Below, one piece after another: positions 10,684 through 37,015 of a DNA stretch of 64,000 bases (positions are counted from its first letter, which is position 1; each line of letters starts with the position of its first letter). This stretch comes from an uncultured Hyphomicrobiales bacterium (GTDB lineage Bacteria > Bacteroidota > Ignavibacteria > Kapaibacteriales > UBA2268): positions 3,495 to 67,494 of the forward strand of contig CAYXFU010000005.1 of the NCBI GenBank assembly GCA_964464375.1, read 5' to 3'. The translations under genes were made by a program, and so were the position numbers. The notes below the pieces were generated by a model. It saw only the letters and a list, made by a program, of their open reading frames with translations. It had not been told where the DNA came from and did not search any database.

Positions 10684-11361
10684 TTATTTGTAATAAAGTG
10701 TAATAACACCGGTAAACTGCTTTGTGAAGAAAGGTGCATTCACAGGAAGAGTTGATATAAAGGATATTTTTATTGTCTTTTTCTCAAAATCATGATCAAT
10801 TATACTAACTTGCGAATTTAATTCAAATTTAGAGTAAGTATAAATATCCATAATGTGTGATGATTTTTTTACTGTGAGAGAGAACCAACGATTGTCTGCT
10901 TTATCCTTATCCAGAACGATGGACTGTTGTTCAGCATTAGCTGCAAATTTTATTTCGAATTCTTTAACCCAATCCCAACGATAATCATTTGTAAATTCTC
11001 TATCAGTTTTTGTAGTCTGCATAGCAAGAGTAAACCAAAGAAAATTTGCTTTCGAGGCTGTATCAAGAATAATTTCCTTGTTTACAATCCTTCCTGCCCA
11101 GTAAAAATAGAACAATCTGTTATTAGCTTTATATTGTTCCTTTAATAAAATCTTTAGAGAATCAATAGTAACTTTTGTGATTGCAGTGTCGTTTCCACCA
11201 GGTGGTATTTGGACTGTATCCTTAATTAGAGGAAATATTTGAACATTTGGATCATAGCCGAGTGAATCCTTGCAGGAATAAAGAAATAATGACAACATTA
11301 CCAAACTGAGAAATATTGGAAATATTAATGAAAGGCTAATATTTGAATGTTTCTTTATCAT
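10684..11361 (-). CDS. lipoprotein of unknown function (third gene of ECF cassette 1)
   Basis: Signal peptide ending in LFLYSC lipobox. Directly abuts the stop of the upstream anti-sigma-like gene (11362). Confidence 0.6.
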   Translation of the reverse strand: MIKKHSNISLSLIFPIFLSLVMLSLFLYSCKDSLGYDPNVQIFPLIKDTVQIPPGGNDTAITKVTIDSLKILLKEQYKANNRLFYFYWAGRIVNKEIILDTASKANFLWFTLAMQTTKTDREFTNDYRWDWVKEFEIKFAANAEQQSIVLDKDKADNRWFSLTVKKSSHIMDIYTYSKFELNSQVSIIDHDFEKKTIKISFISTLPVNAPFFTKQFTGVITLYYK

Positions 11362-12558
11362 TTAGAAATTAAAGCCTAAACCGTAAATAATACCTATTTT
11401 ATTAGAATTAAAAATATTGTTCTGGTGTGTATATGTTAAAACACCAGCCTCACCGCCCAATACGAAGAATATGTCTTTATATGGGGAGTATTGAAGGCCG
11501 ATCATGGCTCTTGTTACAAGTCCGGTAGCAGTTCCGCCAACCTGTCCCTGGACAATACCTTCAAAGCCATTAGATCGAAGGAAAGTATATCTTCCGGATA
11601 ATGAAAAAGACAAATATGTAGGATTTTGCCGATATTCGAACTTTTCATTAACTTCGTTAGTACCTTTATAAACCTGATAGAAATTTTCCTGTCGTATATC
11701 CATACCTAACTTTAAATTATCTGATACTTTATAATTTAAAATTAACGAAGTATTATTCAGCAATTGATTAGAATAAATAGGCAATGTTGAGCTTGGTAAA
11801 GACCAGCTTCCATTTCCTTTGATTTCAAATGAGAGTCCTAAATCACTCTTAATTCTAATATTATCTGTAAATGAGTTGTAGATTGGTTGATCCAGGCTAT
11901 TTAGGTTCGATGAATTATTGTCAGAATTAATCTGTGCAGGCAATGTTGGATAATTAAAATTACTAAAGGATGCAAAATGAGGAACTATAGTGATATCCTT
12001 ATTTGAAGCAATTAATGCTTCTTTCTCAATGATTTGATTGCTATTGTCAGTTAAATAAACATATTTGATGATAGTGCGAACTCTTGGTGGCACTACTTCG
12101 TTAGACATGATATTAGGTACAGAATTATTATTATTTAGTGAACTCGATTCAGATTTAACTATTTGATTTGATTGAGCTACCGATTGATTATCCTGATTTT
12201 TCTCCAACGTGTGAAGACCCAGGAACAGTCCTGTAGTAACTGCAAGAGTAGCCAAACCAGAAATAATAGCCTGAGAATAAGTGCTAAAAAATGATGCAAA
12301 TGCTGATTTCCCGGCTAGAGCTGCTCCGGCAATACCGGCTGCTGTTCCAATACCCAATTGCTGGAAAATGCCAATTGTAGAAGCTGAAGTTGGCACAAAT
12401 GCACTGATTCGCTTATTAAAGGCTTTATCGAGAGAAATAGCCTGCTTCAGCTCGTTCCTTAGTTCGTCACTAGTAGATAAACCAAGAAAAAGCTGAGCTT
12501 CTCCAGCTTTATCCAGTGTACCTTCAAGAAATTCATGTATCAGTTGATTGTATTCCAT
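11362..12558 (-). CDS. putative anti-sigma factor: N-terminal cytoplasmic domain, single TM, Ser/Asn-rich linker, C-terminal outer-membrane beta-barrel-like domain with terminal Phe
   Basis: Starts 12 nt after the ECF sigma gene. The N-terminal ~60 aa are helical (LIHEFLEGTLDKAGEAQLF..LRNELKQAISL). A hydrophobic TM follows (LATLAVTTGLFLGL), then a ~110-aa S/N/P-rich low-complexity stretch. The C-terminal ~170 aa show an alternating hydrophobic beta-strand pattern and end in GIIYGLGFNF (OMP beta-signal). Confidence 0.65.
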   Translation of the reverse strand: MEYNQLIHEFLEGTLDKAGEAQLFLGLSTSDELRNELKQAISLDKAFNKRISAFVPTSASTIGIFQQLGIGTAAGIAGAALAGKSAFASFFSTYSQAIISGLATLAVTTGLFLGLHTLEKNQDNQSVAQSNQIVKSESSSLNNNNSVPNIMSNEVVPPRVRTIIKYVYLTDNSNQIIEKEALIASNKDITIVPHFASFSNFNYPTLPAQINSDNNSSNLNSLDQPIYNSFTDNIRIKSDLGLSFEIKGNGSWSLPSSTLPIYSNQLLNNTSLILNYKVSDNLKLGMDIRQENFYQVYKGTNEVNEKFEYRQNPTYLSFSLSGRYTFLRSNGFEGIVQGQVGGTATGLVTRAMIGLQYSPYKDIFFVLGGEAGVLTYTHQNNIFNSNKIGIIYGLGFNF

Positions 12559-12570
12559 ATTCTAAGTCAA

Positions 12571-13137
12571 TTATTTATTCGATAATTCTTTTAAGTAAGG
12601 ATCAAGTAAATCTTTCATTTTATGTTTTCCGGTAAAAACCAAATATCTTGCTCTTGCTGCAGTTATTTCGAGAACTTCTGCAATATCATCATAAGGCATA
12701 TCATTAAAAAACCGCATAATAATAGGTTCACGATATTCAATGTCCAGTAAGTCCAATGCTCTCATCAATAAATCGGATAGTTCAGTTTCTTCATAAGATA
12801 CACCATCTTGATAAATGAGATCATAATCATTAATCGAAATTGTATTCTTTGCATCGCGCTTAACGTTCAAACATAGGTTCCGAGCAATAGTAATTAGGAA
12901 TCCAATTATTGTTCCTCTTTCATATTCAGATTGAACTTTCTGATAAAACCTGATAAAAGTTTCCTGAAAAACATCTTCTGACATTTGCCTATCATTCAAA
13001 ATCGTCCGGATATAAGCATTAATGCGGATACCATAACGATCATATATCTCTCCGAAAGCTGTATCTGAGTCAGGCTTAGCCCCTTTCAGAATTTTAATCA
13101 GCTCTTCGTCAGTATATTTTGAAAAATCTTTCCGCAT
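12571..13137 (-). CDS. RNA polymerase sigma-70 factor, ECF subfamily
   Basis: Region 2 (DVFQETFIRFYQK, IARNLCLNVKRD) and region 4 HTH (DMPYDDIAEVLEITAARARYLVF). Confidence 0.85.
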   Translation of the reverse strand: MRKDFSKYTDEELIKILKGAKPDSDTAFGEIYDRYGIRINAYIRTILNDRQMSEDVFQETFIRFYQKVQSEYERGTIIGFLITIARNLCLNVKRDAKNTISINDYDLIYQDGVSYEETELSDLLMRALDLLDIEYREPIIMRFFNDMPYDDIAEVLEITAARARYLVFTGKHKMKDLLDPYLKELSNK

Positions 13138-13295
13138 TATAGATCGATACTTTAATAACTACACTAAAAGTAATGTTCTGTTAGAAATGAAACAATATTC
13201 AAAAGGTTACAAAATTAATAATTATTCTTTCAAAAAAATTACTAGAAATTAATTAAATTTGAAAAATTAAAATTATTATTTATTGCAGACTAATT

Positions 13296-14033
13296 ATGCA
13301 CTATTTTATTTCGGATATTCATTTAGGAATTTTAGAAAGAGAAGCTGATAAGCATCGCGAAAGTTTATTACTGGATTTTTTGGACAAAATCAAAGATGAT
13401 GCGAAGTCACTTTACATAGTAGGAGATCTGTTTGATTATTGGTTTGAGTACAAATCTGTGATACCGAAATATTACTATAGAGTTTTAGCAAAATTAGCTG
13501 AAATTAATAAATTCGGGATTGATATCATTTATCTTATGGGCAATCACGATTTCGGTCATTTTGACTTTTTCGAGAAAGAATTAGATATTCATGTTTACAA
13601 GGAAGATTTGGAAACCATTATCGATGGAAAGAAGTTTTATCTATCGCACGGTGACGGTAAAGCATACAATGATGCAGGATACCGTTTGATGAAAAAAATT
13701 CTAAGACATCCTCTATCAAACAGTTTCTTTAGGCTCATACATCCTGATTTCGGAATTAATCTTGCATCATCCTCTTCAAAGTCAAGCAGATCCTACACTG
13801 ATTCCAAAGATTTCAGCAAGAAGGAAGGTTTGGAGGATTTTGCTGAAGATATGATTAAACGTGGATTCGATTATGTTATAATGGGTCACCGTCACAAAAT
13901 AAATTATAAACAATACGAAGATGGAATATACGTCAATCTTGGAGATTGGATAAAACCTGAGCCAGTTTTTGGTCAATTCGATGGAAATGAGCTCAAATTA
14001 GTCAAAGTGAAAGAATTTTTATCTAATCATTAA
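13296..14033 (+). CDS. lpxH: UDP-2,3-diacylglucosamine diphosphatase LpxH (calcineurin-like metallophosphoesterase)
   Basis: YFISDIHLG, YIVGDLFDYW, MGNHDF, SHGDG and MGHRHK motifs align along their length with E. coli LpxH. Confidence 0.85.
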   Translation: MHYFISDIHLGILEREADKHRESLLLDFLDKIKDDAKSLYIVGDLFDYWFEYKSVIPKYYYRVLAKLAEINKFGIDIIYLMGNHDFGHFDFFEKELDIHVYKEDLETIIDGKKFYLSHGDGKAYNDAGYRLMKKILRHPLSNSFFRLIHPDFGINLASSSSKSSRSYTDSKDFSKKEGLEDFAEDMIKRGFDYVIMGHRHKINYKQYEDGIYVNLGDWIKPEPVFGQFDGNELKLVKVKEFLSNH

Positions 14034-30385: not shown

Positions 30386-31810
30386 ATGAAGTATATTCTT
30401 TTTCTTGTAATAGTAAGCATAGCAATTTCAACCAATAGTTTCGCTCAGAAACTACCCAAAATAAATCCGGCAGTTAAGCCAACGGTTGACAAAATAATCA
30501 AACCAGTGATTAAAGAAATCCAATCCTTAAAAGACAGTGTTTCAAAAAGAATCAAACCCTTAAGATCCCAAGCGGATACTTCTCTTTCGAGTGCTGTTAA
30601 ATCTCCTGAAAACACAAAAAAATTGAATTTGACAAATAAAAAATTAACTAAGTTTCCAGCAGAGATATTAAAATTGTCTGAGCTGGAAGTTCTGATTCTT
30701 TCAAGAAATAATATTACAACTTTTCCTTCCGAAATCAAAGACCTGAAGAAACTCAAAGTTCTGGATTTATCAGAAAACACTCTGGATAGAATTCCACCTG
30801 AAGTTTTTACGATTTTAAGTCTGACTGAACTTATTTTATCAGATAATAATATTTCAAATATTCCTGATGATATTTCTCATTTGATAAATCTTAAGAACAT
30901 TGTGCTGAAACGTAATAAAATAGAAACAATTACTGAGAAATTCTCGGATCTCGTTAACCTTCAGAATATATCATTGGAATTTAATAAATTATCTGCTTTA
31001 CCTGCATCAATCACAAAAATATCTGGTTTGCAGAAACTCAATCTTGCTTCCAACAGTATTCAACAAATACCAGCCAGCATTGTAAATTTAGTCAATCTTA
31101 GGACATTTGTGATTCAGAATAATAAATTAACCCAATTACCCAAAGAAATCGGGAAATTAAAAAAACTTATTGAATTTAGCCTAAATGAAAATCAAATTAC
31201 TATATTGCCAGATGAAATCTCTGAAATGGATGGTTTAAGAAAATTATCAATTCAGAAGAACAATCTTACTGCTATACCGAAAGCTATCTTTGGACTTAAA
31301 AATCTTGAAATTCTATATCTTCACGAAAATAAATTAACTGAAATACCCAAAGATATAGAACAAATGAAGAAATTAAAAGAATTGGGCTTGAGTGCTAATT
31401 CAATTTTAAAAATAAATGCTGATTTGAAATCAATCCTAACACTTCAAAAGTTAAATTTAAGTAAAAACAACTTAAATCAAATCCCTGAAGTAGTTTTTGG
31501 CTTAATTAATCTTACAGAATTAGATTTATCATTCAATCAGTTAACAAAAATTCAAGATAATATTTCAATGCTTAAAAATTTAACTGTATTGAAACTTGAT
31601 CAAAACCAAATAACCGAATTGCCAACATCTATAACACAATTAAATAAATTAAAAACTCTATCACTGACATCCAACAAACTTTCTATTCTTCCTTCTGGAT
31701 TAGAGGCATTAACTACTCTGAAATTGCTAAACATCAAGAATAATGCCTTTACTGACGAATATAAAAGCAAATTAAAAGGATTGTTTAAAGGTACAAGGCT
31801 AAATTTTTAA
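30386..31810 (+). CDS. secreted leucine-rich repeat (LRR) protein, ~17 tandem 23-residue LRR units
   Basis: Signal peptide (SIAISTNSFAQ), then repeats of LxxLxxLxLxxNxLxxLPxxIxx throughout. Confidence 0.8.
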   Translation: MKYILFLVIVSIAISTNSFAQKLPKINPAVKPTVDKIIKPVIKEIQSLKDSVSKRIKPLRSQADTSLSSAVKSPENTKKLNLTNKKLTKFPAEILKLSELEVLILSRNNITTFPSEIKDLKKLKVLDLSENTLDRIPPEVFTILSLTELILSDNNISNIPDDISHLINLKNIVLKRNKIETITEKFSDLVNLQNISLEFNKLSALPASITKISGLQKLNLASNSIQQIPASIVNLVNLRTFVIQNNKLTQLPKEIGKLKKLIEFSLNENQITILPDEISEMDGLRKLSIQKNNLTAIPKAIFGLKNLEILYLHENKLTEIPKDIEQMKKLKELGLSANSILKINADLKSILTLQKLNLSKNNLNQIPEVVFGLINLTELDLSFNQLTKIQDNISMLKNLTVLKLDQNQITELPTSITQLNKLKTLSLTSNKLSILPSGLEALTTLKLLNIKNNAFTDEYKSKLKGLFKGTRLNF

Positions 31811-31839
31811 ATATTAATTTCATATTTTTTGAAACTTTT

Positions 31840-32427
31840 TTGTTTTCATGGTGTTATTGCTTTAGGATGAATAATCTAGACCAATATAACGATAATGAAT
31901 TGTTTGATTTGCTGAATTCTGATAAGAAGACGGCAGAGATGGCGTTTGCCGAGTTGTATTTAAGACATTCACCAAGGATCTATGCGTATTGTAGAAGATT
32001 TCTCGGCAATAAGAATGATGCACAAGATGTTTTCCAGGATACATTTGTCAGATTCGTAGAAAGTTCTAAAAAGCCTAGATTAATGACAAACGTCCCTGCT
32101 TATTTGTTGAAAATTGCTCGTAATTTATGTGTTAACGTTAAAAGACATGAAAAATATCCGGTAACGTTTGAAGACTATATGGTTCCTGATGATCACAATA
32201 ATGATAATGATGAGCTGTTAAAACTTATAAAAATGGCTATTGACATACTTCCTGTAGAATACAAAGATATTTTTATTCTTAGGGAATATGATGGACTTAC
32301 TTACACAGAAATAGCAGAAGTTACAAACACTACTTTGGCGGCGGTTAAGATTAAATTATTCAGAGCTAAACAGAAGGTACGTGAAATATTATCTCCTTAT
32401 TTATCTGAATTAAATAAATATTTATAG
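31840..32427 (+). CDS. RNA polymerase sigma-70 factor, ECF subfamily (cassette 2; possible real start 31867)
   Basis: DVFQDTFVRFVES, IARNLCVNVKRH, C-terminal HTH LTYTEIAEVTNTTLAAVKIKLFRA. Paralogous to 12571-13137. Confidence 0.85.
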   Translation: MFSWCYCFRMNNLDQYNDNELFDLLNSDKKTAEMAFAELYLRHSPRIYAYCRRFLGNKNDAQDVFQDTFVRFVESSKKPRLMTNVPAYLLKIARNLCVNVKRHEKYPVTFEDYMVPDDHNNDNDELLKLIKMAIDILPVEYKDIFILREYDGLTYTEIAEVTNTTLAAVKIKLFRAKQKVREILSPYLSELNKYL

Positions 32428-32456
32428 AAAATTGTTAAACTAAATATAAAATTAAA

Positions 32457-33662
32457 ATGAACAATTTAACAGGGAATAATTCATCCGAAATGCTCCATCT
32501 TCTTCTTGACGGAGAATTGGCTCAGGTTCAGGAAGTACCATTATTTTCTGCACTTGCCGCGAATGAGAATCTTCGGGGAGAGATGAAGGATTTAATATCA
32601 ATACGCAATACGGTTCATAGAGATGATGAGGCTTTCGTCCCACCATTTGCAGCAACCGCAGCAGTATTCCAAAGTACAGGATTTTCTCTGCCAATGGCAG
32701 GTACAGCTTTATCGGCAGGAACAGCTGGCGGAGGATTTTACGGTTTTTTGAAGTCTGTATGGATCCCTATTCTAGTCGCAGGTATGTCTTCATTAATAAC
32801 TTACTACATTGTTTCTGGTAACTATAACGATCAAATAGCATCGATGAAATCAGTTAGTCAGAAAAGTACTGTTTCAAATAATTCTCAATCAAACGCAGGC
32901 TTTGGAGAAAATTTGATAAATAATCAAGCTCCGGCACCTAAGGTTATTATTAAATATGTAAAAGTTCCGACTATCACTTCAAGTGAATCAACCGTTTCTA
33001 AAGCAGAAGCATTACCAACTGTTGAACCTGTTGATGAAAAGATATCAAGTACAAGCATTCATTATCAAAATATCTCTCCAATTCGCTCTAATTCAATGCT
33101 GAGTACACCTTTCAGACCGACAAGTTCATCTTATGAGCCAATGTATGCCACCCTGAACATTCACCCTAAAGAGTATATGTTTATTGTGAGAGGATTGACG
33201 GGAGTCACTATGCCATCTGTTAACGCATCTACACCAGCTGGTTCTGGATTAACAAATATATCTCTGGGTTTTTATTTCCTTTCACCATATAGCAATATCC
33301 ATATTGGTGTAGAAGGTGGGCAGGAACCATTTTCTCAGAATTTTGTTAATACTGAGGGTAGCAGGAAATTCCGTTATGAACAACGTCCTAATGTTGTTTT
33401 TGGAGGAGTAGGAGCAATTGGTAAATTAAATTCAAAAATAGATTTCTTATATGATGCCCAACCTTTTGGTCAATTATTTATTGGTGGCTCCGAATTGGGA
33501 CCTTTAGGGAAAATGATGGCAGGTCTCACATGGGGTTCTGATTCATGGGGTTTGAATGCTTTCTTAGCATTGGAAGGCTCATTCCTGGCATATCAAAATC
33601 AGAGTATATGGTACTCATCCCAGAAGATGGGTATCACTTATGGTTTTTCTGTACAATTTTAA
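32457..33662 (+). CDS. putative anti-sigma factor with single TM and C-terminal outer-membrane beta-barrel-like domain (paralog of 11362-12558)
   Basis: N-terminal LHLLLDGELAQVQEVPLF..LRGEMKDLISI parallels its paralog. TM VWIPILVAGMSSLITYYIV, S/T/P-rich linker, C-terminal beta-pattern ending GITYGFSVQF. Confidence 0.65.
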   Translation: MNNLTGNNSSEMLHLLLDGELAQVQEVPLFSALAANENLRGEMKDLISIRNTVHRDDEAFVPPFAATAAVFQSTGFSLPMAGTALSAGTAGGGFYGFLKSVWIPILVAGMSSLITYYIVSGNYNDQIASMKSVSQKSTVSNNSQSNAGFGENLINNQAPAPKVIIKYVKVPTITSSESTVSKAEALPTVEPVDEKISSTSIHYQNISPIRSNSMLSTPFRPTSSSYEPMYATLNIHPKEYMFIVRGLTGVTMPSVNASTPAGSGLTNISLGFYFLSPYSNIHIGVEGGQEPFSQNFVNTEGSRKFRYEQRPNVVFGGVGAIGKLNSKIDFLYDAQPFGQLFIGGSELGPLGKMMAGLTWGSDSWGLNAFLALEGSFLAYQNQSIWYSSQKMGITYGFSVQF

Positions 33663-33673
33663 GGTTAAAAACG

Positions 33674-34408
33674 ATGAAAATATTAATTAGGTTAAATATT
33701 ATTTTTGCAGCACTTGCTTTGTTTATATCAGCATGTACTTCGCCGATGGATGTTAATACTCCACGAGATCAAAAGCTAATACCCGGAGAAAATTACAAAA
33801 TTTCCGGAAATATTTCTGAGATGAGTTTTGAGGAAAATGGTGTGCAATGCTCATTCAATTTAGGTGAGAATACATTTGAGATAGACACTACAGTTAATCC
33901 AGCAAGAATTTGGCTAAGAGTTAAATTAACCGATAATGAAAATTTTAATGCTACACAAAGTAGAATTTCGGTGAAAAGGATTGACATCAGATTGGATTCG
34001 TTGGATATTTCTAGCCCTTACACATTCACCGGCAGAAAAATCGGGGATAATTTTGCCATTATTGATATCGAACGTGGATTAAATACTTCTAAGGATACTT
34101 CAGTATATTTCGGGCAGGATTTAAATACTGCAGAAGTCACTTTCAATTATAATAAATCAAAAGGTGAACTTTGGGCTTATACATTATCCAAGGTTTACGA
34201 GAATAAAATCTGGCTGGAATACCATGATTCTACTTATACTGATTATATTACAGTGACCAGACCTGATACTACCTATGACAATAATGGTAAAATGATTATC
34301 ACTTTAAAAACTGAAAAGATTGCAAAAGAAGTAACTATTAAATTAGAAGAAGAAAAAATGCTTAAAGATTCTTTGTTTTTAACAGGAAAGTTTAAATTTA
34401 AATTTTAA
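33674..34408 (+). CDS. lipoprotein of unknown function (third gene of ECF cassette 2)
   Basis: MKILIRLNIIFAALALFISAC lipobox. Starts 12 nt after the anti-sigma-like stop. The ORF-track start at 33545 overlaps the upstream gene and is unlikely. Confidence 0.6.
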   Translation: MKILIRLNIIFAALALFISACTSPMDVNTPRDQKLIPGENYKISGNISEMSFEENGVQCSFNLGENTFEIDTTVNPARIWLRVKLTDNENFNATQSRISVKRIDIRLDSLDISSPYTFTGRKIGDNFAIIDIERGLNTSKDTSVYFGQDLNTAEVTFNYNKSKGELWAYTLSKVYENKIWLEYHDSTYTDYITVTRPDTTYDNNGKMIITLKTEKIAKEVTIKLEEEKMLKDSLFLTGKFKFKF

Positions 34409-34459
34409 TTGCTTATATTTGCTAAGAAACCTATTTACATATATTTAACAGGTGATGAC

Positions 34460-37015
34460 ATGAATAAAATGTACCGTTATTTCTTCATTTTTCTTGCTTT
34501 CACATTGCAGTTTGCCATTACTAATGCATTCAATCTCGATGCTCCTCAAAGACTGACAGCAACTACAGGTCAAGATAATCAGGGCTCTTATGTTGATTTA
34601 TCCTGGTATTTCCAGAGTAATAATGATCAACCATATGCCTTTTATATTTACCAAGCGACTAAACAAACCCAGGACAAAAAGGACTTCCAGGTTTTTGGTA
34701 AAGTTAAATTTGACCCAAACACAAATCAATTTACTTACAGACAATATCTACAGACCGGTACTTTTAGTTTCTATGTAACGGCAATTGGTATTGATGGGAA
34801 TAACTTAGTAGAGAGCAACGGTTCTAATATTGTTACAGTTCAGATTGCAAAAGATCCAAACAAACCATTTATACAAATTGTTTCACAACCAAATGTATAT
34901 TCCAAGATTGGTGATAAATATTCTTATCAAATAAAAGCTAAAACAAATCTTGATCCCTCATGCCCATTAGTATATAGGTTGCTCGATGGACCTAAAGATA
35001 TGCAAATAGATGAAACAAATGGTTTAATTACATGGGCTCCCTCAAGTAATGGTTCATTCCCGGTTGCTGTCCAGGTAGGAACAACATGCAAAATTGCTGT
35101 TGATTTTCCTGTTCAAAAATTCATGATTAACGTTGGTGATGTGAATAACGGACCCTATGTAAGATTCGAATCAAAACCTCTACCAACAATTCCTGTTGGT
35201 AAAATGTATGTTTATCAAATTGTTGCAAGCTCTAATGTAAAATGCCCTATTAAATTTGAGTTAATATCAAATACCCCCAATATTAAATTTGATAATGTAA
35301 AGGGTGAACTTTACATTTATTCAGATGTTCCAACAATGATAACCGGTGGCATTAAAGCATATCTCGAATGTGATCCAAAAGTAATGGCATACCAGCAGTT
35401 CGCTATCAAAATTGTTCAGGATCAGCCACAAGAAGATCTTTGTGCAGTTATCAAAGGTAATATTGTTCTCGAGGATGGAACTCTTCCAAGAGAAGGCAAA
35501 GTTATCGCTTGGAGACTTACCGAGAAATCTAATAAAATTCCAGCTTATCCTGGTTACATAAAAGAAGGAAAATTTGAAGTTAATGTTCCGACAGGTGCTT
35601 TCATTCTAGAGTTTGACAGTCCCGTGTTTATGCATGAATACTATCTGGATGCTAATTCAATTGATAAAGCACAGAAAATTGATGTAAAATGTAAAGATGT
35701 TGTTGAAATTGATGTTGCCGTTACAGCTCGTCCAGTTCCAAAAACAAACTCTGTAAGCGGTACAGTTACTTCCATATTGGACAACAGTCCTGTATTCGCA
35801 GTCGTTGAGTTCTATCCTGTTGATCCGAAAAATAATATTAATCAGAAGACTGGTATGGTATTCCAGACAAAAACTGATGCAAATGGAAATTACTCAATTG
35901 AACTGACAGACGATATGACTTATCGTGCTCATTGCAGACCAATGGCTAATATACCATATAAAGATCAATGGTACGATCAGGTAGACAATCCAAACCAGGC
36001 AGATTTGATCTATCCCGATCAACCATTAACCGGAATTGATTTTAAATTAAGTAAAGCAGATTTGATTAAAAACAGTTTTGCAGGCTCAGTTAAAGATGCT
36101 AATGGAGTTTCTGTAAGGTCACGTATTTTAGCTTTGCCTGTCAAAGCAAATCCTAGCAACAATACTAACGCAGGTCAATTTATAACAGAATCTAAGGATG
36201 ATGGTTCATTTATGTTCCAAAATCTTCCTTATGGAAATTATGTTTTACTTTCATTACCCGTTGACAGAAAATTCTTACCAGGATATTACAAATCATCTGA
36301 TTTTGCCACTTTAAAATGGCGTGAAGCAACGCAGATAACTGTTGGCGACAATATGCCGGCTATGATCTACGAAATCAAACACAAGCTGAGAACAGGCTTT
36401 AAAGGTTTGATCAGAATTGATGGAAATATCATCGCCAGCGGAATGGCAAAGAAAAATATAGATATTCCGCAATCAAACGGATCTCCTGTTGAAGATGCTT
36501 TGGTCTATATAATTGATGAGCAGGGTGAAGTCAGCGATTTCGCTTTGACTGATGCTGCAGGTTACTTCGCAATGTCTGAAGTATCTGAAGGTAATTGTAA
36601 ACTATTTGTTGATAAAGTTGGATTCAATACTTTCGAAAAATCATTAACAAATGATTATACCAAGAGCTTCTCATCAAATGTTGATGTAGTCTTAGAACTT
36701 GAAGTAGCCGGAGTTGAAGAAGAACAAGTTGTTTCAAATCTAACCATTTATCCTAATCCTACACAAAATGTAGCAAATATTATTATATCTGGGTATGTAT
36801 ATGCGTCAACTCAAGCAGTTGTAAGAGTAGTTGATGTTATGGGGAATATAATATTAAGTAAAGATGTAAATTTAGAATTTTTAAGTGCAGAAGTCCGTAT
36901 TATGACTTCCACCATGGTTTCATTAGATATTAGCTCATTAGCACACGGAATTTATATAATTGAGGTCATCTCTGGAAACACTAAGACACAAACAAAGCTG
37001 AATGTTATAAGATAA
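34460..37015 (+). CDS. large cell-surface protein with cadherin-like/Ig-like and CarboxypepD_reg-like repeats and a T9SS C-terminal sorting domain
   Basis: Signal peptide MNKMYRYFFIFLAFTLQFAITNA. Repeated putative Ig domain units (YSYQIKA...DGPKDMQIDETNGLITWAP; YVYQIVA...). C-terminal T9SS type-A CTD (NLTIYPNPTQNVANIII...GIYIIEVISGNTKTQTKLNVIR). Confidence 0.8.
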   Translation: MNKMYRYFFIFLAFTLQFAITNAFNLDAPQRLTATTGQDNQGSYVDLSWYFQSNNDQPYAFYIYQATKQTQDKKDFQVFGKVKFDPNTNQFTYRQYLQTGTFSFYVTAIGIDGNNLVESNGSNIVTVQIAKDPNKPFIQIVSQPNVYSKIGDKYSYQIKAKTNLDPSCPLVYRLLDGPKDMQIDETNGLITWAPSSNGSFPVAVQVGTTCKIAVDFPVQKFMINVGDVNNGPYVRFESKPLPTIPVGKMYVYQIVASSNVKCPIKFELISNTPNIKFDNVKGELYIYSDVPTMITGGIKAYLECDPKVMAYQQFAIKIVQDQPQEDLCAVIKGNIVLEDGTLPREGKVIAWRLTEKSNKIPAYPGYIKEGKFEVNVPTGAFILEFDSPVFMHEYYLDANSIDKAQKIDVKCKDVVEIDVAVTARPVPKTNSVSGTVTSILDNSPVFAVVEFYPVDPKNNINQKTGMVFQTKTDANGNYSIELTDDMTYRAHCRPMANIPYKDQWYDQVDNPNQADLIYPDQPLTGIDFKLSKADLIKNSFAGSVKDANGVSVRSRILALPVKANPSNNTNAGQFITESKDDGSFMFQNLPYGNYVLLSLPVDRKFLPGYYKSSDFATLKWREATQITVGDNMPAMIYEIKHKLRTGFKGLIRIDGNIIASGMAKKNIDIPQSNGSPVEDALVYIIDEQGEVSDFALTDAAGYFAMSEVSEGNCKLFVDKVGFNTFEKSLTNDYTKSFSSNVDVVLELEVAGVEEEQVVSNLTIYPNPTQNVANIIISGYVYASTQAVVRVVDVMGNIILSKDVNLEFLSAEVRIMTSTMVSLDISSLAHGIYIIEVISGNTKTQTKLNVIR

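Follow-up and report, generated by a model that had tools for sequence, protein, structure and literature searches.

A Dma-like candidate anti-sigma factor with a predicted outer membrane barrel in a locus of Ignavibacteria

The locus and its diverged second copy

The window, by which we mean the whole 64-kb stretch of DNA analysed, carries on its reverse strand an open reading frame (11362-12558) for an anti-sigma-like protein of 398 residues, and beside it a gene for an ECF sigma factor of 188 residues (12571-13137, reverse strand). The sigma gene lies upstream, with a gap of 12 nt between the two, exactly as an earlier reading made from the sequence alone had stated. Its identity is clear from Pfam matches to Sigma70_r2 (E = 9e-12) and Sigma70_r4_2 (E = 8e-11) and from a score of 65.8 bits against TIGR02937, for which the cutoff is 42.9. 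The top NCBIfam subfamily is TIGR02985, at 70 bits and under that model's cutoff of 126. Orthologues of the sigma gene are found immediately upstream of the anti-sigma gene, across short gaps, in every locus examined. A single tRNA is the sole Rfam find in the window.

On the base directly after the stop codon of the anti-sigma gene starts a third, putatively co-transcribed gene (10684-11361, reverse strand). It encodes a lipoprotein of 225 residues in which the lipobox L-Y-S-C30 is followed by a conserved x-D-S-L-G motif. The order sigma factor, anti-sigma factor, lipoprotein is seen in all 15 full-length loci examined, in one contig of 5.46 Mb and in a diverged second copy within the window. 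A Pfam scan of the lipoprotein returned no family at E <= 1, hence neither of the NigD models, PF12667 and PF17415. Fold searches with its structural model gave no link to NigD; the model is a weak one (pLDDT 58, from an alignment of five sequences), and a remote kinship may exist.

The second copy is a whole, diverged module on the forward strand (31867-34408). Its sigma factor (31867-32427, forward strand) matches Sigma70_r2 and Sigma70_r4_2 in Pfam and is found by hmmsearch with the family profile of the first sigma factor at E = 4e-65. The Dma-like anti-sigma factor that follows (32457-33662, forward strand; 401 residues) matches the family HMM at E = 1.3e-65 and ends in GITYGFSVQF; in BLASTP it aligns with its counterpart in the first module from end to end, at 26% identity (E = 1e-23), a VIIKYV island included. 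The lipoprotein (33674-34408, forward strand; 244 residues) has the lipobox I-S-A-C. BLASTP between the two lipoproteins gave no match; hhalign of the second against an alignment of 16 lipoprotein sequences gave a probability of 91% (E = 1.1e-6) over 156 columns, which span an invariant D-T motif. By this profile alignment, the second lipoprotein is a remote homologue of the first.

Scans of the operon for generic sigma-70 promoters and for terminators gave results at chance level. A candidate autoregulatory promoter of ECF type, AAC-N15-GTGTA, lies at 13160-13182 (reverse strand), 22 nt before the start codon of the first sigma gene, and another candidate, AAC-N15-GTGTT, at 31833-31855 (forward strand), 11 nt before the ATG at 31867 that opens the second module. 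The motif, a fixed-spacing pattern G.A[AT]C-N14-[TA]GTGT[TA][AT], was defined post hoc on the sequence that precedes orthologous sigma genes; 10 of 17 such upstream regions contain it, against a shuffle mean of 0.2. The site in the first module fits a relaxed form; the full site in the second, GAAAC-N15-GTGTTA from 31831, lies outside the set used for derivation. Over the 64-kb window the relaxed form has three matches at one stringency and nine at another (nine against 6.3 expected, no enrichment). It is the position of the site alone that is informative. Both may serve as promoters.

Domains of the anti-sigma-like protein

Four parts had been proposed for the protein by the sequence-only reading, namely N-terminal helices, one transmembrane helix, a linker and a C-terminal β region, and all of them are found. 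The N-terminal domain (residues 1-72; 12343-12558, reverse strand) has four short helices in the AF2 model (3-12, 17-29, 31-46 and 59-67; pLDDT ~74), and these ~70 residues are the best conserved part of the family. Pfam and NCBIfam scans assign the window protein neither a FecR domain (PF04773) nor any other family. Weak matches do fall on this region: zf-HC2 of Pfam in 3 of 12 and 4 of 43 members, RseA_N, the NCBIfam model NF052375 ‘anti-sigma factor’ (residues 8-128, E = 2.5e-4) and RsiW (5wuq_C, with residues 5-67 aligned in register, E = 0.2). Every sequence match to a curated anti-sigma or OMP model falls far short of that model's threshold, and the N terminus is likened to anti-sigma domains because zf-HC2, NF052375, RseA_N and RsiW converge, in register, on the same residues.

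The zinc ligands are gone. Where RsiW has HLETCEKC the window protein has LSSNEELR; the HxxxCxxC motif occurs in none of the 158 family representatives, and Cys is absent altogether from 124 of them. Pfam scans of 12 and 43 members gave no FecR match, and in the loci inspected none of the genes called on either side of the module encodes a TonB-dependent receptor. The absence of zinc finger and FecR domain that had been claimed is thereby borne out. The accompanying claim, that the protein belongs to no standard anti-sigma family, has to be given up: judged from the weak in-register matches, the domain looks to be related to the ordinary class-I/ZAS anti-sigma domains, though without their zinc site, and it may bind the sigma factor.

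A second transmembrane segment at residues 62-91, which would return the C terminus to the cytoplasm, was considered and rejected. The stretch is Gly/Ala-rich, its start carries the conserved S-T-x-x-I-F-x-x-L-G that constitutes helix 4 of the anti-sigma-like domain, and the residues that follow are polar or Pro-rich in most relatives.

The single transmembrane helix is placed at residues ~95-116 (12211-12276, reverse strand) by hydropathy, with a peak of 1.91 in the 19-residue Kyte-Doolittle window, and by AF2, which has a helix at 84-116. One such segment is present in each of the 158 representatives (median start at residue 99, Kyte-Doolittle value at least 1.56). Residues 117-240 (11839-12210, reverse strand) form a putatively periplasmic tether of 124 residues, with pLDDT below 50 and a column conservation of 0.22-0.38, where the domains on either side of it have 0.5-0.7. 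Among the representatives its length has a minimum of 107, a median of 136 and a maximum of 188 residues. The earlier description of a Ser/Asn/Pro-rich linker of ~110 residues holds as regards richness in Asn and Ser, and fails as regards Pro; we call it Asn/Ser-rich because it contains 21 Asn and 18 Ser (and 13 Ile) against 7 Pro. Pro148 is conserved, as is an island K-Y-V-Y at residues 165-168 (12055-12066, reverse strand).

The C-terminal domain (residues 241-398; 11365-11838, reverse strand) is predicted to be an eight-stranded β-barrel of outer membrane type. An AlphaFold model had been suggested as a check, and the AF2 model, built on an alignment of 12 sequences, has strands throughout 242-397 at pLDDT 79-88, as 10 DSSP elements that reduce to 8 strands over two 2-residue breaks. 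Foldseek finds 39 matches to this domain in the PDB at E <= 1e-3, every one of them an integral outer membrane barrel. At their head are NspA (1p4t, E = 2.9e-6, TMt 0.63), OmpA (9fzc, 0.62) and the N-terminal domain of OprF (4rlc, 0.61), and OmpX is likewise among the eight-stranded outer membrane barrels with which the domain groups in AF2 and Foldseek. Curated models are less forthcoming. In the Pfam check that had been proposed, the window protein itself has no match, PF13568 included; OMP_b-brl models weakly match 2 of 12 and 7 of 43 members, the latter with PF13505 (best E 7.6e-4, under threshold), and OMP_b-brl_2 (PF13568) matches 1 of 43 (E = 0.017).

The protein ends in ...KIGIIYGLGFNF, in which G393-x-x-F396-x-F398 corresponds to the BAM-type β-signal G-x-x-F-x-F. 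The last residue is Phe in 118 of the 158 representatives, Leu in 28 and Tyr in 5 (152 with F, L, Y or W), Gly occupies position -5 in 149, and the signal is conserved in ~95%. On the strands the polar face is better conserved than the hydrophobic one (entropy 2.02 against 2.40), and a more variable hydrophobic face agrees with a lipid-facing exterior. R289, E291, Q295, R350 and E370 form a network of conserved residues in this domain. Prediction and sequence together thus show a barrel fold with a β-signal at the C terminus, as the sequence-only reading had supposed, and this barrel may be inserted in the outer membrane.

A metagenomic family and its likely mode of action

A profile search with the family returned 1,801 clusters at E <= 1e-3 (~1,800 at 50% identity). 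The best 150 of the 1,801 are all full-length in architecture, at E <= 1e-61, and the four-part arrangement is for that reason beyond chance; the recurrence of the same domain fusion, for which a profile search had been advised, is confirmed to that extent. The hosts are MAGs of Ignavibacteria, Melioribacteraceae, Kapabacteria and ‘Bacteroidetes bacterium’. NCBI taxonomy gives the Ignavibacteria a phylum of their own, Ignavibacteriota, and places Kapaibacterium in Bacteroidota; GTDB has both within Bacteroidota. Protein searches were filled by the Ignavibacteria family, a search with the sigma profile brought up only members of that family among the 120 matches listed, and tblastn searches of plasmids with the anti-sigma factor and with the sigma factor yielded nothing relevant. 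There is no Pfam or NCBIfam model for the anti-sigma family. Members are mostly unnamed or ‘hypothetical protein’, and the clusters of distant representatives are almost without names; the two names seen, ‘anti-sigma factor family protein’ and ‘outer membrane protein’, each cover one half of the protein.

Probably the protein is a two-membrane anti-sigma factor of the Dma type, a single chain with one end in the cytoplasm and the other in the outer membrane. Such a trans-envelope polypeptide had been put forward by the sequence-only reading, and the gene adjacency, the likeness of the N terminus to anti-sigma domains, the single transmembrane segment, the tether of at least 107 residues, the outer membrane barrel fold and the β-signal all support it. 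It had also been thought topologically unusual. The design is not new, being the published architecture of Dma (PMC10927553). In Bacteroides thetaiotaomicron, Dma1 (BT_4721), partner of the sigma factor Das1, was shown to span both membranes in experiments that combined dual tagging with fractionation (Pardue et al., PNAS 2024; PMC10927553), and its first 40 residues bind Das1 (PMC10927553). The four-part design beside an ECF sigma factor characterizes the Dma family, to which both Dma1 and Reo belong, the latter with EcfO in B. fragilis and Phocaeicola vulgatus (Pardue et al. 2024, PMC10927553; 10.1101/2025.09.27.678952; PMC13114119).

In the Dma-type reading, the zinc-less class-I domain (residues 1-~70) would hold the ECF sigma factor encoded at 12571-13137 at the inner membrane. 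Helix 95-116 would be an uncleaved N-in signal anchor, and the remaining chain would therefore be exported. The disordered tether would cross the periplasm, and the C-terminal 158 residues, an OmpA/OmpX/NspA-like barrel, would be inserted by BAM by means of G-x-x-F-x-F. If Dma1/Reo is taken as the model, a damaged outer membrane or barrel might cause the tether to be cleaved and regulated intramembrane proteolysis to set in, and the sigma factor would so be released. The freed factor could then transcribe its own operon, the downstream lipoprotein gene included, from the AAC-N15-GTGT promoter.

Three other explanations deserve mention. The protein could be a conventional anti-sigma factor of a single membrane, with a soluble sensor barrel (YceI-, lipocalin- or TbpB-like) in the periplasm and the linker as a flexible spacer. 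We think this unlikely. The sequence-only reading had named a soluble periplasmic β-sandwich beforehand as the outcome contrary to its own proposal, and that outcome did not arise; the 39 Foldseek matches are without exception integral outer membrane proteins. The chain stops exactly at the last strand, with the Phe and Gly frequencies given above, and the conserved BAM β-signal counts against a soluble barrel because such a barrel has no reason to retain it. The hydrophobic face of the strands is the variable one, and nowhere among the 158 representatives is the tether shorter than 107 residues.

Still less credence can be given to the idea that the protein is a structural element or envelope tether that staples the two membranes together, leaving the sigma factor unregulated by its N terminus, with the adjacency of the genes a matter of co-regulation only. 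The statistical weakness of the anti-sigma matches (E of 2.5e-4 for NF052375, the best, and 0.2 for RsiW) speaks for it. Against it, conservation in the protein is highest over the N-terminal 70 residues, independent if weak matches from Pfam, NCBIfam and the PDB all place an anti-sigma domain on that one stretch, and the gene comes right after the ECF sigma gene, with short gaps, at each locus as well as in the second module. Finally, an artefact in which an anti-sigma gene and an OMP gene were fused by frameshift or mis-assembly is refuted, for practical purposes, by the recurrence of the identical protein in different samples, on at least 20 contigs in all, by over 150 representatives (50% identity) that span the profile end to end, and by the diverged paralogue of the same layout in the window.

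The concept of an anti-sigma factor spanning two membranes has been known since 2024 from Dma and is unchanged by the Ignavibacteria family. What is new is a large metagenomic family of Dma-like design (~1,800 clusters at 50% identity), overlooked by domain databases and genome annotation, and the extension of that design to Ignavibacteria, a separate phylum under NCBI taxonomy. Models of assembly and signalling now have three family-wide constraints to account for, namely the minimum tether length of 107 residues, the near-universal β-signal and the short conserved stretch that interrupts the tether. More speculatively, the Ignavibacteria/Kapabacteria proteins could be an ancient sister clade of Dma or an independent invention, forming an obligate trio of sigma factor, two-membrane anti-sigma factor and dedicated eight-stranded-barrel lipoprotein that duplicate and diverge together; the lipoprotein, perhaps through the K-Y-V-Y island, might then take part in sensing or release and not be a mere member of the regulon. 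We hold this to be possible and rather doubtful. If true, the origin of trans-envelope anti-sigma factors would predate the split of Bacteroidota and Ignavibacteriota, and the lipoprotein would be a component outside the published Dma model.

Comparison with known systems

In the FecA-FecR-FecI system, as is proposed here, a single-pass anti-sigma factor of the inner membrane communicates an event at the outer membrane to an ECF sigma factor. That system, however, uses three separate proteins, with a 22-stranded TonB-dependent transducer and a FecR domain in the anti-sigma factor; the window protein has no FecR domain, and its outer membrane element is a small barrel fused to the chain. With RseA/sigma-E and RsiW/sigma-W there is a shared N-terminal helical domain (RsiW in register, RseA_N and zf-HC2 weakly) and a shared single-pass N-in topology, and release of the window's sigma factor is probably proteolytic too. 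The extracytoplasmic part of RseA and RsiW is a soluble periplasmic domain, whereas that of the window protein is predicted to consist of a long tether with a membrane barrel at its end. RsiW also has the zinc ligands that the window protein lacks.

Among small outer membrane barrels, the best structural matches (TMt 0.6-0.63) are NspA, OmpX/Ail, and the N-terminal domains of OmpA and OprF. Both termini on the periplasmic side, short periplasmic turns and an aromatic C terminus are common to these and, by prediction, to the window barrel. Those proteins, however, lose their signal peptide by cleavage and either stand alone or bear a C-terminal periplasmic domain; unlike them, the window barrel is the C-terminal end of a chain anchored in the inner membrane.

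The closest likeness is to the Dma family, and it is one of layout and gene context. In both families an N-terminal sigma-binding domain (here predicted) is followed by one transmembrane segment, a long disordered tether and an eight-stranded barrel, the gene lies beside that of an ECF sigma factor, and there are several paralogues per genome. The hosts differ, with Dma in Bacteroidia and the present family in MAGs of Ignavibacteria and Kapabacteria. The Dma papers limit the family to the phylum Bacteroidota and assign its sigma partner to ECF21; Dma1 is WP_008766767.1, and homologues were defined by tblastn with 95% query cover (PMC10927553). Dma1 carries the Pfam annotation OMP_b-brl_2, which the Ignavibacteria family lacks, and tagged full-length Dma1 runs as a band of ~55 kDa, whereas the Ignavibacteria proteins are smaller, at ~400 residues. 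A lipoprotein gene beside the pair is a further common feature (nigD2/BT_4719 and M0N98_03762 in the Dma systems). The one described here lies downstream in the same putative operon and has no Pfam match at E <= 1. A co-inherited lipoprotein partner is relevant to Bacteroides, where NigD lipoproteins adjoin ecfO-reo.

Architecture and family of the 398-residue protein

The anti-sigma-like protein (11362-12558, minus strand) is encoded 12 nt downstream of the gene (12571-13137, minus strand) for a 188-residue ECF sigma factor, which matches Pfam Sigma70_r2 and Sigma70_r4_2 as well as, above cutoff, TIGR02937. The immediate adjacency of the two genes, put forward in the sequence-only reading, is therefore borne out, and the four-part layout proposed there is real. 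Hydropathy reveals one strong hydrophobic segment, at residues 95-116. An AlphaFold2 model based on an alignment of 12 homologues contains short N-terminal helices (3-12, 17-29, 31-46 and 59-67; pLDDT about 74), a long helix at 84-116, no structure from there up to residue 238 (pLDDT <50) and β-strands spanning residues 242-397 (pLDDT 79-88). The chain ends ...KIGIIYGLGFNF. Described at first as rich in Ser, Asn and Pro, the linker (117-240) does abound in Asn and Ser (21 and 18 residues), but Pro occurs just seven times. Neither Pfam nor NCBIfam matches the protein.

A word-indexed search retrieved 12 relatives and no more; an exhaustive profile search yielded 1,801 clusters (50% identity) at E <= 1e-3 and 673 at E <= 1e-30. 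The best 150 of the 1,801 clusters each score E <= 1e-61, nearly all span the profile end to end and, apart from one 169-residue barrel-only fragment, they are 373-472 residues long. Family-wide constraints were counted in 158 representatives, every one of which has a single hydrophobic segment (median start, residue 99). No region is less conserved than the tether, yet its length stays at or above 107 residues (median 136, maximum 188). Within it an island, K-Y-V-Y (residues 165-168; 12055-12066, minus strand), is conserved along with Pro148 while the remainder is not, and (I/V)-K-Y-V-Y recurs at residues ~162-168 of a paralogue encoded at 32457-33662. The island might serve as a site of cleavage or as a strand that binds a partner. 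A 551-residue relative (locus L022, 2974-4629, plus strand), from a high-GC MAG whose Ectothiorhodospiraceae label is probably wrong, has the N-terminal domain and TM helix of the family and ends ...GFTAGLNYQF. Its tether is far longer, at roughly 200-250 residues, and rich in Pro, Ala, Thr and Ser, so that the design tolerates very different tether compositions.

The terminal domains

Conservation across the family is highest in the N-terminal domain. Pfam zf-HC2 matches it weakly in 3/12 and 4/43 members, and RseA_N matches one. The NCBIfam 'anti-sigma factor' model NF052375 has a weak match (E 2.5e-4) to residues 8-128 of one homologue, P0012, which NCBI names 'anti-sigma factor family protein'. 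Residues 5-67 of a 33-sequence profile (residues 1-72) align, again weakly (E 0.2), with residues 9-70 of RsiW (5wuq_C). These independent weak matches all fall on the same N-terminal residues. In the RsiW alignment the zinc motif HLETCEKC is replaced by LSSNEELR; HxxxCxxC occurs in none of the 158 representatives, 124 of which are free of cysteine. The absence of a zinc motif, remarked on earlier, thus holds, but the accompanying claim that this is not a standard anti-sigma family does not: these alignments are best explained if the domain is related to the ordinary class-I anti-sigma domains but lacks zinc.

For the C-terminal domain, all 39 Foldseek matches in the PDB at E <= 1e-3 are integral outer-membrane barrels. 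The highest target-normalised TM-scores come from eight-stranded barrels, namely NspA (1p4t; 0.63, E 2.9e-6), OmpA (0.62), the N-terminal barrel of OprF (0.61) and a designed eight-strand barrel (0.59), larger barrels scoring much lower. The ten DSSP strand elements of the model reduce to eight strands when merged over two 2-residue breaks, and its turns are compatible with a tether entering from the periplasm and a C-terminus returning there. Pfam OMP_b-brl matches are weak but consistent (2/12 and 7/43 members, best E 7.6e-4). The chief rival is that the domain is a soluble periplasmic barrel carried by a conventional anti-sigma factor. Two observations favour a membrane barrel instead. First, a C-terminal signal G-x-x-(F/Y/V/L/I)-x-F is near-universal among the 158 representatives, and the chain stops exactly there: 118 end in Phe, 28 in Leu and five in Tyr, 149 have Gly at position -5, and a hydrophobic or aromatic residue stands at position -2. 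Second, conservation is higher on the polar/glycine face of the strands than on the hydrophobic one (mean column entropy 2.02 vs 2.40; 1.2-1.7 vs 2.6-2.8 in the last four strands), the pattern expected if the hydrophobic face meets lipid rather than a core. We therefore consider the soluble alternative improbable. The barrel-like C-terminus recognised from sequence is supported, and would lie in the outer membrane.

A three-gene module and its duplication

At every locus with a full-length homologue (15 tabulated loci and a closed 5.46-Mb contig) the sigma factor (about 187-200 residues after start-codon correction) comes first, then the anti-sigma-like protein (380-446) and a third protein (about 209-237), while the genes flanking the module vary. 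The third gene encodes a lipoprotein, with a signal peptide and an invariant lipobox Cys followed directly by conserved x-D-S-L-G. Here it (10684-11361, minus strand) begins at the base right after the anti-sigma stop codon. Pfam and NCBIfam scans found no match to it; its AlphaFold2 model is all-β but weak (pLDDT 58, pTM 0.56), and a Foldseek search with this weak model gave none. Hosts are recorded as Ignavibacteria, Melioribacteraceae, Kapabacteria and 'Bacteroidetes/Bacteroidota bacterium' MAGs, the nearest genome locus being in an Ignavibacteria MAG (75% identity), which makes Ignavibacteria the most likely source of the window. Several binned assemblies carry the labels 'uncultured Hyphomicrobiales' or 'Ectothiorhodospiraceae', which appear unreliable.

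The earlier finding took in the copy at 10684-13137 alone. A local HMM scan of all ORFs in the window uncovered a second, diverged copy, comprising a sigma factor (31867-32427, plus strand), a 401-residue protein ending ...GITYGFSVQF (32457-33662, plus strand) and a lipoprotein ORF with lipobox I-S-A-C (33674-34408, plus strand). The 401- and 398-residue proteins share 26% identity over their whole length (E 1e-23), VIIKYV island included. BLASTP showed no similarity between the two lipoproteins; hhalign aligned the second with a 16-sequence lipoprotein alignment at 91% probability (E 1.1e-6, 156 columns), the match embracing an invariant D-T motif. All three genes having paralogous counterparts, the module duplicates and diverges as a whole, a pattern repeated by two loci of one MAG (L014 and L016).

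Upstream of orthologous sigma genes lies a motif of fixed spacing, G-x-A-(A/T)-C, 14 nt, (T/A)-G-T-G-T-(T/A)-(A/T), present in 10/17 loci, where shuffling gives a mean of 0.2. It was derived post hoc from these sequences. In its relaxed form, A(A/T)C-N15-GTGT(A/T), the motif occurs nine times in the window (6.3 expected), and two of these sites, correctly oriented, immediately precede the two sigma genes. These candidate promoters, at 13160-13182 (minus strand) and 31833-31855 (plus strand; GAAAC-N15-GTGTTA, outside the motif-deriving set), would be compatible with autoregulated ECF promoters.

Several neighbours may be mentioned. A Metallophos (calcineurin-like phosphoesterase) gene (13296-14033, plus strand), whose product we take to resemble LpxH, a lipid A pathway enzyme, diverges from the first sigma operon across a common 158-nt intergenic region; the association is probably not conserved, because neighbours differ elsewhere. 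Immediately upstream of the second module is a secreted 474-residue leucine-rich-repeat protein (30386-31810, plus strand; LRR_8 E 2e-57; ending ...RLNF), and the promoter-like site starts about 20 nt past its stop codon. Directly after that module comes an 868-residue protein (34409-37015, plus strand) with He_PIG, CarboxypepD_reg and Por_Secre_tail, a type-9 secretion C-terminal sorting domain; a 942-residue protein with the same domains adjoins the module in a Kapaibacterium locus (L003, 289-3117, minus strand). Judged from these two cases, such a protein may regularly adjoin the module or belong to its regulon. Two related contigs carry, ~700 nt past the lipoprotein gene on its downstream side and convergent with the module, a gene for a Peptidase_M50, an RseP-like site-2 protease (L023, 6151-6567, minus strand; L024, 6193-6567, minus strand), with a Peptidase_M48 gene just upstream in L023. 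This arrangement was not seen beside the window's two modules.

Comparison with Dma anti-sigma factors

Dma1 (BT_4721) of Bacteroides has at its N-terminus a sigma-binding region, of which 40 residues are enough in a pull-down; one TM helix and a long disordered region follow, and an eight-stranded barrel forms the C-terminal part. Its gene is in the same operon as that of Das1, an ECF21 sigma factor (Pardue et al., PNAS 2024, PMC10927553). By dual tagging and fractionation, the full-length chain was located in total membranes, whereas outer-membrane vesicles contained C-terminal fragments. The authors explicitly contrast Dma1 with FecA/FecR/FecI (PMC10927553), as the sequence-only reading did for the present protein. 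B. fragilis and P. vulgatus have orthologues, Reo/EcfO; NigD lipoprotein genes adjoin these pairs and belong to their regulon.

Compared by architecture rather than sequence, the 398-residue protein agrees with Dma in every feature considered: TM helix, tether, predicted barrel, adjacent ECF sigma factor, paralogues and neighbouring lipoprotein. The proposal of a single chain spanning the envelope is supported. That the barrel inserts into the outer membrane and that the N-terminus binds the sigma factor we infer from prediction, conservation and analogy, and here lies the main uncertainty. Unlike Dma, the protein is smaller and has no OMP_b-brl_2 annotation, and its lipoprotein gene is downstream in the same operon with no Pfam match, hence none to NigD models. 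The host lineage also differs. The Dma papers state that the family is confined to Bacteroidota. NCBI taxonomy assigns Ignavibacteria to a separate phylum, Ignavibacteriota, and Kapaibacterium to Bacteroidota. GTDB places both inside Bacteroidota. The literature searched contained no paper linking Dma to Ignavibacteria.

The two-membrane anti-sigma idea was already published in 2024, so the 398-residue protein is an unannotated member, or a sister clade, of a known design. To that design the present results add, with some value, family size and phyletic reach, a co-inherited lipoprotein, a candidate promoter, and the family-wide constraints of minimum tether length, β-signal and tether island.
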